Origin: Candidatus Parcubacteria bacterium
GTDB taxonomy: Bacteria; Patescibacteriota; Patescibacteriia; Patescibacteriales; UBA12075
Direction: 5' to 3'
NCBI GenBank assembly: GCA_002869165.1
Contig: PKTK01000003.1
Coordinates: forward strand, 20,195 to 84,194
Length of the DNA stretch: 64,000 bases
Shown here: one piece after another, positions 49,830 to 52,013 of the stretch
How the letters are laid out: the number at the start of each line of letters is the position of its first letter
How positions within the stretch are numbered: the first letter of the stretch is position 1
Notes under the pieces: generated by a model
Told to the model about the DNA's origin: nothing
Databases searched by the model: none
Seen by the model: the letters and a program-made list of their open reading frames with translations, nothing else
Program-made: the position numbers and the translations under genes

Positions 49830-52013
49830 ATGGATAAAAAACAAGCACAAATGAGAATAATGAAATTACGAAACGAGATCAACCATCATCGTTATCTTTA
49901 CCATGTTCTAGACAAGGCTGAGATCTCTGAGGCTGTGCTTGATAGTTTGAAAGATGAGTTGCAAAAACTCGAAGAGAAATATCCCGAGTTCATTACATCA
50001 GATTCACCCACCCAAAGAGTTGCCGGTAAACCTTTGGATAAGTTTTCCAAAGCTAGTCACTCCAAGAGGATGATAAGTTTGTTTGACGCCTTTTCATCTG
50101 AGGATATGAAAGACTGGGAAAAGAGAAACAGAAATTATTTAGTAAAGAATAGTAACCACCCCTATCCGTCTGCTGGCGAACCCTTTTTGAAAAAAGAAAG
50201 GAAAGAAGTCTCCCCTTTGCAAGGGGAGTACCTGAGCGAAGCGAAGGGAAGGGGTTTTGAATACTACTGCGAACTAAAACTTGATGGTCTAGCCGTGGCC
50301 ATTCGATTTGAAAGATCTGATTTTGATATAGCTATTACCAGAGGCGATGGACAAACAGGTGAGGTGATAACGCAAAATGTAAAAACTATTGAAAGCATAC
50401 CCTTGAAGTTGCGTTATCCATTAAGTGAGGAGTTTGAAAAAGCTGGGATTAGTAATGAGCAATGTGAATTGATTTATGAAGCTTTGAATACTGGAACGAT
50501 TGAAGTGAGAGGAGAAGCAATAATGACTAAAAAAGTTTTTGAGGACTTGAATAAGCAGTACAAAAAACAAGGCAGAGCAGAATTGTCCAATCCACGTAAT
50601 GGAGCAGCCGGCTCACTTAGACAGTTAGATCCGAAGCTAGCAGCTGAGCGTAAACTTGATTTTTATGCCTATGATCTAGTAGGGGAGTTTGGCTTGGAAA
50701 CGCAAGAGCAAAAATTTATAGTACTAAAAATGCTTGGCTTGAAAATTTTGTCTGAGAATAAATATTGTCAAAATATCGATGAGGTAATTGACTTTCAAAA
50801 GGAGTGGATTGAAAAACGCGAGGAACTTGATTTTTACATTGATGGAGTTGTTGTTAAGGTGAATAATTTAAATCTTTGGGATGTTCTTGGGATTGTTGGT
50901 AAGGGCCCAAGATACATGATAGCCTATAAATTTCCGGCCGAACAAGCTACGACCAGAGTTTTGGATGTTGTTTGGCAGGTTGGCAGAACAGGTGCTTTGA
51001 CTCCTGTGGCACATCTTAAACCAGTTAATGTGGGTGGAGCGGTAATCTCCAATTCCAGCCTTCATAATATGGATGAAATCAATAGATTAAATTTGCGGAT
51101 AGGTGATACTGTTATTATTGAACGCGCTGGAGATGTGATCCCCAAGGTTGTGAAAGTGCTGGAAAATTTGCGGACCGGAGAAGAAAAGAAAATTGATAGT
51201 CCCAAGAAATGTCCAATATGTAGTTCTGAAGTTAAGAAGCAAAAAGATCAAGTAGCTTATAAGTGTACCAACAAAGATTGTTTTGCCACTAAGTTACGTG
51301 GTCTTATTCATTTTGCTTCTAAATCTGCTCTAGATATTGAAGGTCTTGGTGAAAAGATTGTCGAGCAGTTGTATAAGGAGAAGTTGGTGGTAGATATTGG
51401 AGATTTTTATAATTTAAAAAAGGGTGATTTGATGTTACTTGAGCGCTTTGCTGAAAAGTCAGCAGATAACTTGATTAATTCTATTCAAGCAAAAAAGGAA
51501 ATTAGTTTGGAAAAACTTTTATATTCTTTAGGTATAATGCACGTTGGCGAGGAAACAGCTATAGTGTTAGCTAATTTTTATTTTTCCCATGAGCAAAAGA
51601 CAAATTTTAATAGTATTATTAAATTCTTTAAAAACATTAAAAATAGTGATTTGGAAGAAATAAATGATATTGGACCAAAAGTTTCTAAAGCAATCATGGA
51701 ATGGTGGCAAAATGAACAAAATATTCATATTTTGGAGAAATTGTCTAATAATGGTGTAAAAATTACCAAAAAAGAACTAATAACAAATTCCAAGTTACAA
51801 GGGAAAACCGTTGTTTTGACTGGCAGCTTGACAAAATTGACAAGAAATGAAGCAAAGGATAAAATAAGGACTATGGGTGCAAAGGCCAGCTCAACAGTAA
51901 CTAAAAATACAGATTTACTGATAGTAGGCGAAAATCCAGGATCAAAGTATGATAAGGCCAAGGAATTGGGGATTGAAATCATTACTGAGGAAGATTTTTT
52001 GAATAGCTTCTAG
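49830..52013 (+). CDS. ligA: NAD-dependent DNA ligase LigA
   Basis: KxDG motif (CELKLDG), OB fold, zinc finger CPICSSEV...C..C, HhH and BRCT regions. Confidence 0.95.
50155..50246 (+). repeat. G+C-rich palindromic element inserted in frame within ligA
   Basis: Encodes about [34 protein letters not shown]. The core TCTCCCCTTTGCAAGGGGAGTACC (50209-50232) recurs at 57638-57661 with one mismatch. Confidence 0.7.

Follow-up and report, generated by a model that had tools for sequence, protein, structure and literature searches.

Two protein-coding genes in the 64-kb stretch of Patescibacteria DNA analysed here (the window), ligA and a gene for a family-4 glycosyltransferase, carry G+C-rich palindromic inserts that belong to one repeat family. 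The features at these loci, together with a nearby intergenic palindrome and the evidence for each, are as follows:

49830 to 52013, plus strand: ligA, encoding a NAD-dependent DNA ligase of 727 aa (open reading frame list, Pfam)
50154 to 50256, plus strand: the entire inserted palindromic element of 103 nt (AACCACCCC...GAAGGGGTT), encoding N109/H110 to G142
50158 to 50167, no strand assigned: left terminal arm ACCCCTATCC, pairing with the right terminal arm (minimum-free-energy and centroid folds)
50182 to 50201, no strand assigned: left inner hairpin (CCTTTTT...AAAGAAAGG), A+T-shifted (fold)
50208 to 50256, plus strand: complete two-hairpin unit, matching covariance model R1 over its full length, 1-45 (cmsearch 46.1 bits, E 1.6e-15)
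50210 to 50228, no strand assigned: hairpin 1, CTCCCCTT-TGC-AAGGGGAG, of 8 bp with a 3-nt loop (hairpin scan, sequence)
50231 to 50247, no strand assigned: hairpin 2, the variable module, CCT-GAGCGAAGCGA-AGG (cmsearch alignment)
50247 to 50255, no strand assigned: right terminal arm GGGAAGGGGT, pairing with 50158-50167 (folds)
57271 to 57386, no strand assigned: intergenic 116-nt palindrome (TGTCATCCCC...GGGAATGACA) of a separate family (sequence; no R1 match)
57416 to 58570, plus strand: family-4 glycosyltransferase gene, the second host of the element (open reading frame list; Pfam PF00534 and PF13692)
57590 to 57691, plus strand: in-frame insertion of ~34 aa (SYKSPLERSTPDSSYNSPLSKGSTPEGGGVQSPSK) in the glycosyltransferase (ortholog alignment, composition)
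57637 to 57679, plus strand: complete two-hairpin unit in the glycosyltransferase, also a full-length R1 match (cmsearch 50.0 bits, E 4.6e-17)

All of the LigA domains (Ia, adenylation, OB, zinc finger, HhH and BRCT) were recognized by Pfam. The adenylation lysine is K150, in the KxDG motif context C147-E-L-K150-L-D-G, and K150, D152, G153 and the four zinc-finger cysteines are invariant among 99 orthologs. In a phmmer comparison with E. coli LigA (2owo; E 2.5e-151), residues 7-107 align to E. coli residues 5-105 and residues 145-724 to 110-666, while residues 108-144 stand opposite just four E. coli residues. This amounts to an insertion of ~33 aa that stops five residues upstream of C147-E-L-K150-L-D-G. 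A first-pass annotation, made from the sequence alone, had proposed about 33 extra residues ahead of the KxDG motif, and these are borne out by the E. coli comparison and by their absence from the closest relatives. The nearest orthologs are 61-65% identical to the window LigA; in the nearest relatives (P0003-P0006) and at a syntenic locus (L003) the insertion is missing and the site is short and A+T-rich, so that the insertion is lineage-specific and frame-preserving, as had been supposed. Three contigs encode the same 727-aa LigA; one belongs to the Logan collection and lies outside the record containing the window. The insert is therefore not an assembly artefact. In keeping with the loop envisaged in the first-pass annotation, AlphaFold2 models the segment as a low-confidence loop between helix H90-108 and strand E145-151, which carries K150; mean pLDDT is 88, with values below 50 for residues 111-129. 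The insert is probably a disordered surface loop of Pro, Gly and charged residues. Searches for intein and intron signatures in LigA found none, with Pfam returning ligase domains only and Rfam returning nothing.

The LigA insert has a G+C content of 51.5%, compared with 35.8% in the remainder of ligA and 33.7% in the window as a whole, in agreement with the G+C-rich stretch noticed at first pass. The extent then assigned to it, 50155-50246, has been revised to 50154-50256, the 3' boundary being the end of the terminal GGGGTT. The insert folds along its whole length as a single long palindrome (RNA z = -3.4, none of 200 shuffles being equally stable; DNA z = -1.9). Terminal inverted repeats of the form AACCYCNCCCC / GGGGNGRGGTT enclose one or two hairpin units, and occur in the window, in the LigA inserts of four other loci (L123, L142, L143 and L144) and in intergenic doublets of L037. 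Each two-hairpin unit of 45 nt consists, in order, of CTCCCCTT-loop-AAGGGGAG, TACC, a variable covarying hairpin and GGGGAGGGGTT. The right unit of the LigA element preserves this order well, ending in GAAGGGGTT, and its CTCCCCTT-TGC-AAGGGGAG hairpin, which the first-pass annotation had seen, lies at 50210-50228. The left half of the insert gave no significant match with R1; its inner hairpin may have arisen as an inverted copy of hairpin 1 that has since decayed, to judge from doublets in L037, L013, L142 and L144.

The CTCCCCTT-TGC-AAGGGGAG hairpin has a single further occurrence in the 64 kb, and it too is intragenic. The glycosyltransferase insertion that contains it is 53.9% G+C versus 32.0% in the remainder of the gene, and an alignment of 120 orthologs gives 67 aa at this site here versus a commonest length of 33 aa. 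Hairpin 1 of this copy spans 57639-57657, and the copy is identical to that in LigA at 25 of 27 nt (blastn within the window, E=2.5e-5). The frames used differ by one: the LigA copy yields SPLQGEY and the glycosyltransferase copy SPLSKGST. Because the two copies are translated in different frames, the repeat is defined at the level of DNA and not of protein. At the matching LigA site, the L001 ortholog has an R1 unit (46.5 bits) in the glycosyltransferase frame (NSPISKGST). The 57637-57679 copy, a true sibling, had been overlooked in the first-pass annotation.

R1 copies within the window number two. A third match, at 39144-39184 on the minus strand (16 bits), was rejected as a chance hit in the conserved ...RVSTLPLVGTEKVVMRIL... 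stretch of a pilus/secretion ATPase. The intergenic palindrome at 57271-57386 had been linked to the LigA insert at first pass through two short shared words, which do recur (GAGCGAAG at 50234 and 57283; GGGAAGGGG at 50246 and 57314). The link is weak and kinship was rejected: the termini of the palindrome differ (TGTCATYCC), R1 does not match it, and it belongs to a different family, with a mini copy at 26228-26255.

Beyond the window, other genomes contain over 130 copies of the core, so that the recurrence anticipated for it extends well past the second window gene with its different frame. R1 was built from 44 copies, all from phyla other than the window's. Its base-pair cells are 99.2% paired, with compensatory changes in both helices, and hairpin 2 shows covariation within the family (CG 47, GC 25, UA 16 and AU 8 as pair types). 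Exact-core copies number at least 132 in at least 118 loci and are frequently arranged as inverted doublets, with the units on opposite strands (L013, 2485-2529 minus and 2538-2582 plus; L037, 7259-7300 minus and 7326-7370 plus). In Elusimicrobiota, Bacteroidota, Ignavibacteriota and other Patescibacteria the core is extragenic and present in multiple copies, near-identical cores being present in at least four phyla, and Parelusimicrobium proximum alone has dozens of copies. Among the matches listed, 1 of 132 exact cores lies inside an open frame. The R1 unit is mostly stop-free, each of the six frames being open in 41-80 of 86 units. Many copies have GTAG in the tail GGGGTAGGGTT and others have GAGG, GAAG or GCAG, this tetranucleotide lying 3' of the hairpins; both window copies carry GAGG or GAAG in place of GTAG. 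The unit ends in GGGG(A/T)GGGTT or GAAGGGGTT, and a terminal CGTC is absent. Rfam gave no match at the gathering threshold in the window, and a sub-threshold match of an Rfam miRNA model on the L013 doublet was spurious. As a census query for coding insertions the 33-aa insert was uninformative, matching two of 1.84 billion representative proteins: a short predicted protein with four copies of ELSPLQGEY and an unrelated repeat protein.

The distribution of the copies suggests that the element is mobile. All-against-all clustering of 1464 open reading frames from the loci listed (at least 118) revealed no recurrent transposase-like protein; a family of paralogous lipoproteins and spurious G+C-rich frames were all that emerged. 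No RAYT-like gene was found near copies in the loci examined, and neither the loci nor the plasmids or phages yielded an insertion sequence with such ends. Blastn gave no match in plasmid or phage collections, and a single viral contig contained the core. In the flanks inspected, no clear target-site duplication was seen; TA or TTAA often borders the element, in an inconsistent pattern and in genomes that are A+T-rich.

The LigA site itself is occupied repeatedly. Inserts of at least 10 residues are found there in 41 of 118 Patescibacteria orthologs, scattered over the tree, and their presence takes 27 Fitch parsimony changes versus a mean of 34 for shuffled labels. Six distinct element variants (the window, L001, L123, L142, L143 and L144; R1 E<=1.3e-5) have differing hairpin-2 sequences, with both orientations represented. 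Where distant orthologs have a segment at this site, it is a G+C-rich palindrome and not the segment of normal composition against which the first-pass annotation had weighed its proposal. Every LigA insert examined keeps the frame, is stop-free in the frame used and varies in length by whole codons. Related inserts were found in independent samples; a metagenome scan for ligA gave 18 loci, mostly near-identical and insert-free, with L123 alone informative. Third-codon identity between the ligA genes of the window and L001 is only 38%, and hairpin 1, GTACC and the tail match at ~29 of 33 positions (~88%, counted manually).

In our judgement, the ligA insert is probably a small palindromic repeat, non-coding and of the REP/REPIN or MITE type, that entered the gene in frame. 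The repeat would have been inserted or copied into the gene with an insertion length that is a multiple of three bases and, with no stop in the frame of ligA, would be translated as such, giving a loop that the enzyme presumably tolerates, perhaps neutrally. This LigA loop and the equivalent loop of the glycosyltransferase would take up such elements repeatedly in Patescibacteria. In indispensable genes, selection would spare only in-frame, stop-free insertions at permissive sites, and the removal of settled insertions would require a precise in-frame deletion.

A more specific reading, possible but doubtful, is that the 45-nt unit is a cross-phylum module tied to one codon-level site in ligA, either as a homing-like, site-selective mobile element that would have invaded this loop of an essential ligase many times or because selection on DNA or RNA structure keeps it there. 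Either version would account for a near-consensus hairpin 1, GTACC and G-rich tail despite the saturation of neutral ligA sites, for the presence of six variants at one site, and for the lack of further copies in the flanks of insert-bearing genomes.

We consider it unlikely that a single insertion in the ligA of ancestral Patescibacteria was kept for a hairpin function at the nucleic-acid level, acting on mRNA stability or pausing translation between the N-terminal helices and the catalytic strand, or serving as a DNA site for protein binding, with repeated loss producing the patchy distribution. The identical site in many lineages and the conserved synteny would suit such a history, as would conservation of the blocks far above the 38% identity of third codon positions and short footprints suggestive of decay (a 16-aa remnant in P0002; ...GGYY/GGYF endings). 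It would also suit the preservation of different halves, since the window and L001 keep the plus-strand unit, and L123, L142 and L144 the minus-strand one. The flanks of six other insert-bearing ligA genes (~53 kb) contain no more R1 copies at E<=0.1, which has been counted in favour of one ancient event; such copy-free flanks fit an old retained insertion and recurrent gain equally. Against it, hairpin 2 is wholly different between lineages (TGAGCGAAGCGAAGG, GCGATAGCGG, GGCCTTCGGCC, or none), and this divergence in sequence and length is more readily accounted for by separate members of the family than by compensatory evolution in situ. The right junction also lies two codons apart between classes (...GRG|FEYY vs ...GGG|YY), and about half of the orthologs are insert-free. 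In the 120-ortholog alignment, moreover, the glycosyltransferase hot spot gathers repeats of unrelated types, which suggests permissiveness and not function.

It is very improbable that the element is missing from the mature protein, whether through ribosome skipping or through removal from the mRNA or protein. A precedent for skipping exists in yeast mitochondrial DNA, an A+T-rich genome in which mobile G+C-rich hairpin clusters occasionally lie in coding sequence and are sometimes bypassed in translation ('byps'). The present elements, unlike those clusters, are bacterial and unrelated in sequence, and the likeness is an analogy only; the inserts keep the frame, lack stops and come in whole-codon lengths, and Pfam and Rfam show no intein or intron signature. 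The remaining idea, that slippage or duplication simply expanded the loop in this lineage without any repeat element, or that the assembly is chimeric, could appeal to the general variability of site length across LigA but is effectively refuted by the R1 match (E 1.6e-15) to repeats of other phyla, the sibling copy within another gene, the identical protein on three contigs from different collections and the related inserts in independent samples.

An in-frame palindromic repeat has parallels in several known systems. According to the summary in PMC3733652, Rickettsia palindromic elements (RPE-1 to RPE-10) are short palindromes of a small A+T-rich genome, both intergenic and in-frame intragenic; the host protein gains a peptide segment and stays functional, and RPE-4 and RPE-6 terminate in CGTC. 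The likeness to them drawn at first pass holds for behaviour and mechanism but not for the sequence family. Like them, the window repeat has in-frame copies (in ligA and the glycosyltransferase) that are absent from orthologs. Unlike RPE-4 and RPE-6, its unit ends in GGGG(A/T)GGGTT, a distinction drawn from the described ends; no kinship in sequence is apparent, and the host belongs to Patescibacteria instead of Alphaproteobacteria, with a core common to several phyla. GTAG- and CGTC-tagged REPs are described in the same paper (Di Nocera et al. 2013, PMC3733652) as palindromes of 20-40 nt, often inverted dimers and mostly extragenic, with an intragenic minority whose coding segments come to 20-30 aa; replication and repair genes stand out among the hosts, the DNA ligase of Opitutus terrae being one. 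In the text searched, that paper makes no mention of Elusimicrobia or Candidatus lineages, and mentions Bacteroidetes once, for CGTC repeats. The present family resembles REPs in its many extragenic palindromic copies, seen in other genomes (the source genome being represented by 64 kb), but differs in having two hairpins and a G-rich tail per unit, GTAG in some copies only and no RAYT gene found nearby. Intragenic palindromic repeats, a DNA ligase case included, are thus already known from PMC3733652, and the LigA repeat adds some unusual features. Among the papers searched, none ties Patescibacteria to REP, MITE or palindromic elements in genes.

REPINs are pairs of REPs that RAYT mobilises (Bertels & Rainey 2011, PMC3116915), and abstracts on REPIN-RAYT systems describe vertical inheritance within lineages. 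Two inverted units with a short spacer form one long hairpin in L013, L037, L142 and L144, as in REPINs, and the LigA insert would be a decayed form of this architecture; unlike REPINs, four or more phyla share near-identical cores, and a RAYT was not found. The QMITE1 and QMITE2 elements of Coxiella are non-autonomous, have terminal inverted repeats and sometimes lie in frame inside ORFs, contributing residues; their length is 150-400 bp, their direct repeats measure 2-11 nt, and the cited cases in functional genes extend gene ends (PMC5896051). The LigA element shares with MITEs the terminal inverted repeats around a short non-coding core, but differs from QMITEs in its length of ~100 nt, its position internal to essential enzymes and its lack of an evident target-site duplication.

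If the preferred reading of an in-frame insertion is true, streamlined candidate-phyla-radiation genomes tolerate selfish palindromic DNA within essential enzymes in much the way of Rickettsia, with a small number of permissive loops serving repeatedly as places of landing or retention. Variable Pro/Gly-rich protein segments in Patescibacteria may then derive from repeats and not from functional domains, and should for that reason be masked in alignments and trees. The LigA site would offer dozens of natural insert/no-insert pairs for studying the birth and loss of a disordered loop beside an active site. REPIN and MITE families are usually lineage-restricted, which makes it unusual for Elusimicrobiota, Bacteroidota, Ignavibacteriota and Patescibacteria to share a near-identical hairpin 1; this would suggest either a conserved recognition partner or horizontal spread, both of which are testable.

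Two bins were left out of the phylum count. Labelled 'Acutalibacteraceae' and 'Flexilinea' (H07xxx cleanbin assemblies), they share their flanking repeats with bins of Prevotellaceae and Paludibacteraceae and are perhaps Bacteroidales that were mis-binned.

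The G+C-rich segment within ligA is concluded to be a palindromic element, of REP/REPIN- or MITE-like type, that was inserted in frame. The gene encodes a ligase with all the usual domains and lies in a gene order (type IV pilin genes-ligA-gatC-gatA-DsbA-like gene) that is kept in several related Patescibacteria contigs. Alignment with E. coli LigA (2owo) paired residues 7-107 with 5-105 and 145-724 with 110-666, leaving approximately 33 residues (H110-G142) without a counterpart; these stop five residues ahead of C147-E-L-K150-L-D-G. The extra residues before the KLDG motif, the G+C-rich stretch encoding them (51.5% over 50154-50256 versus 35.8% in the remainder of ligA; 33.7% in the window) and the hairpin with a TGC loop had been described in the first-pass annotation and are borne out, although the true end of the element lies ten bases past the one it gave. 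An assembly artefact is ruled out, since three contigs, including one from the Logan collection, encode the same 727-aa protein.

Features of the LigA insert and of the repeats compared with it (window positions)
49830-52013, ligA open reading frame, 727 aa
50154-50256, LigA insert, 103 nt; its 45-nt two-hairpin unit is at 50208-50256
50158-50167, left terminal arm, ACCCCTATCC, pairs with 50247-50255
50210-50228, hairpin 1, 8 bp, CTCCCCTT-TGC-AAGGGGAG
50247-50255, right terminal arm, GGGAAGGGGT, pairs with 50158-50167
57416-58570, family-4 glycosyltransferase, hosts the second copy (unit at 57637-57679)
57271-57386, TGTCATYCC-family copy, 116 nt, intergenic, upstream of the glycosyltransferase
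26228-26255, TGTCATYCC-family copy, 28-nt mini palindrome, upstream of recG

When the insert was compared with the window by low-stringency blastn, one significant match emerged, 50206-50232 to 57635-57661 (25/27 identical, E 2.5e-5), within the glycosyltransferase gene. There, 57590-57691 has a G+C content of 53.9% versus 32.0% in other parts of the gene and adds approximately 34 residues, the length at the site being 67 aa against a commonest value of 33 aa among 120 orthologs. The core TCTCCCCTTTSCAAGGGGAGTACC common to both copies is translated as SPLQGEY in LigA and as SPLSKGST in the glycosyltransferase; the reading frames differ, and the repeat is therefore a DNA entity and not a protein motif. 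Hairpin 1 occurs at only these two sites in the whole window, both coding. Two words of the insert had also been noted within 57271-57386, where they do recur; that repeat belongs to another family, with termini TGTCATYCC...GGRATGACA, and is not matched by a covariance model of the unit (R1). Similar AATGACA / GTCATCCTGAG motifs adjoin R1 units in Parelusimicrobium proximum loci.

An exact-pattern scan with CTCCCCTTNNNAAGGGGAGTACC, taking one genome per species, found the core at no fewer than 118 loci outside the window. Among the matches listed, copies are numerous in the complete Parelusimicrobium proximum genome and occur in Elusimicrobium posterum, an Elusimicrobia MAG, Paludibacter, Paludibacteraceae, Bacteroidales and Prevotellaceae assemblies, an Ignavibacteriaceae MAG, and Patescibacteria, Peribacteria and Gracilibacteria MAGs. 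Four phyla, not six, are counted among these matches, since the 'Acutalibacteraceae' and 'Flexilinea' bins have flanks in common with Bacteroidales bins from one and the same project and could be binning errors. Outside the window the unit is extragenic: an open frame of at least 60 codons on both sides was seen at 1 of the 132 exact cores listed, and that frame is doubtful. In Bacteroidales loci the G+C-rich unit is bordered by A+T-rich AATTAAGAATTATGAATT runs. P0241, a predicted protein of 110 aa, has four ELSPLQGEY motifs spaced 20-41 aa apart, which is hairpin 1 read in the LigA frame and arrayed (tandem elements or a CRISPR-like array).

The aligned copies form one unit consisting of hairpin 1 (CTCCCCTT/AAGGGGAG), TA, hairpin 2 and then GGGG(T/A)AGGGTT. 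Hairpin 2 is closed by CC/GG, and its interior varies freely (TGCgaaGCA, CGCgaaGCG, GACgaaaGTC or a short CCCgaaGGG). R1, trained on 44 non-window copies, matched the LigA unit (46.1 bits, E 1.6e-15) and the glycosyltransferase unit (50.0 bits, E 4.6e-17) over the full model. In the alignment of 150 R1 matches, which is fitted to the model, standard pairs make up 99.2% of pair cells, compensatory changes occur in both helices (one hairpin-2 pair is CG 47, GC 25, UA 16 and AU 8 times), and no shuffled or slid control came near the observed pairing values. The motif is absent from Rfam.

Inverted doublets, with units a few tens of bases apart, are frequent. The LigA insert folds along its whole length, with the terminal arms paired around a left hairpin that is A+T-shifted and a hairpin 1 that is intact; folded as RNA it has z = -3.4, with none of 200 shuffles equally stable, and as DNA z = -1.9. 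Its termini, AACCYCNCCCC ... GGGGNGRGGTT, are also those of intergenic doublets from a Patescibacteria MAG (L037) and of LigA inserts in other lineages. R1 is significant only in the right unit of the insert, and we infer that the left half is a decayed inverted unit.

Among 120 LigA orthologs (52-65% identical), about half have minimal spacing at the insert site, and in many others precisely this site is longer by 10-49 residues. These inserts are typically Pro-rich at the start and Gly-rich at the end (...TPLLKGGEGG, ...SPSLRRRGVGGG), the kind of peptide that AACCCC...GGGGTT termini encode in any frame. The nearest relatives (proteins P0003-P0006 and the syntenic locus L003) have a short A+T-rich AATAAAAAAAAAATTAAGAAAATTAAG there, and P0002 has a 16-aa remnant hairpin. 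With the unit recurring elsewhere and this site short in the nearest relatives, the reading first proposed, an in-frame palindromic repeat resembling the Rickettsia elements, is supported. Residues ~197-222 (50418-50495) form another insertion when compared with E. coli LigA; its composition is normal and the Patescibacteria orthologs have it too, so it is an ordinary feature of the clade rather than a repeat.

In a neighbour-joining LigA tree of 118 sequences, built with the insert columns left out, 41 sequences have at least 10 extra residues, and Fitch parsimony required 27 changes versus a shuffled-label mean of 34 (minimum 26); inserts are thus distributed with almost no structure across the tree. 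R1 detected six inserts in LigA-site DNA at E<=1.3e-5.

R1 matches to LigA inserts (strand, score)
Window, +, 46.1 bits
L001, +, 46.5 bits
L123, -, 28.9 bits
L142, -, 28.4 bits
L144, -, 28.3 bits
L143, both strands, about 20 bits

The hairpin-2 modules of these six differ or are missing, and right junctions lie two codons apart (...GRG|FEYY vs ...GGG|YY). Several gains at the LigA site are favoured on these sequences, because the hairpin-2 variants are diverse and the junctions differ, and both points speak against a single ancient gain. The footprints at the site, and the absence of other unit copies from the ~53 kb flanking insert-bearing ligA loci, nevertheless leave room for an ancient gain with repeated loss, in which the insert would be retained under nucleic-acid-level constraint. 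Between the window and L001, third codon positions of ligA are 38% identical, and approximately 29 of 33 positions match (our count) across hairpin 1, GTACC and the tail.

Retention of the LigA insert is attributed to its lack of stop codons, its length in whole codons (a multiple of three) and its position within a permissive loop. The unit's six frames are each open in 41-80 of 86 copies, and insertions that suit the host frame are therefore no rarity. The glycosyltransferase site behaves like the one in LigA: in other lineages it collects unrelated repeat types (VIPAQAGIQ / LDPRLREDD-type and A+T-rich NFQFSIFNF-type peptides), which argues that the hot spots may be permissive loops rather than a single sequence-specific target. 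At the hot spots of LigA or the glycosyltransferase, P0017, P0027, P0092, P0128, P0150, P0220 and others have peptides of the sort that other DNA repeats encode, of A+T-rich NYELRIKN / NFQFSIFNF types and also of VIPAQAGIQ and LDPRLREDD types. Neither a recurrent transposase nor a clear target-site duplication was found at or near the copies, plasmid and phage collections gave no matches to the element, and among viral contigs the core was seen in a single one.

An AlphaFold2 model of LigA, computed with 99 orthologs, has high overall confidence (mean pLDDT 88.2). Residues 111-129 fall below 50, and ten-residue block means over 111-140 are 39, 42 and 58; this stretch lies between helix 90-108 and the strand 145-151 that bears K150. 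The ortholog alignment shows no variation at catalytic or zinc-binding residues. The simplest reading of the model is that the insert would form a tolerated, disordered surface loop.

In-frame palindromic repeats are already known as a kind, and the LigA element is a further member. Its behavior is like that of the Rickettsia palindromic elements, and the same as that of the intragenic REP dimers of Di Nocera et al., which encode 20-30 aa within replication and repair genes, including a DNA ligase gene in Opitutus terrae (PMC3733652). In-frame MITE fusions are known in Coxiella (PMC5896051), and the inverted doublets resemble REPINs/BIMEs. RPE-4 and RPE-6 have a CGTC tag, whereas the unit has none; its GTAG is inconsistent, it has two hairpins and no RAYT is in view, so it is filed as an intragenic palindromic repeat of no named family. 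Among the papers searched, none gives an account of such elements in Patescibacteria. What is unusual is a core common to several phyla, together with a much-reused site in an essential ligase.

Further features lie near ligA and elsewhere in the window. A perfect palindrome with a 23-bp stem (49771-49821; ATTTCCCGACCTCCGAGGTCTGC-AAGTT-GCAGACCTCGGAGGTCGGGAAAT), each arm nearly self-complementary, directly follows a terminator-like hairpin, 9 nt upstream of the ligA start codon. Between ligA and gatC, a 103-aa ORF of the 23S rRNA-intervening-sequence protein family (PF05635; 52087-52398, E 3e-29) is bracketed by 31-nt inverted repeats (52004-52034 / 52421-52451, 90% complementary); 52004-52451 looks like a small cassette. 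Syntenic relatives are without this ORF at that position, and L144 has a PDDEXK_3 ORF there instead. A direct repeat of 132 nt (55127-55258 / 55446-55577, 98% identical) flanks a GIY-YIG nuclease ORF (55243-55578) and extends into tRNA-Ser(GGA) (55564-55648), which suggests that an insertion duplicated the region upstream of this tRNA (55127-55648). An acidic ORF of 147 aa in 2384-2827 (G+C 55-61% vs 33.7% in the window) has no match in Pfam, and sub-threshold Rfam matches in 2200-3000 all lie downstream of it, past 2819; this G+C-rich stretch is possibly of foreign origin or may specify an unrecognised RNA. Finally, 15335-18573 may be a small integrated island: direct repeat pairs (15335-15460 / 17165-17290, 81%; 16136-16248 / 18392-18504, 88%) enclose G+C-rich ORFs without family matches and adjoin tRNA-Asn (18501-18573, minus strand).
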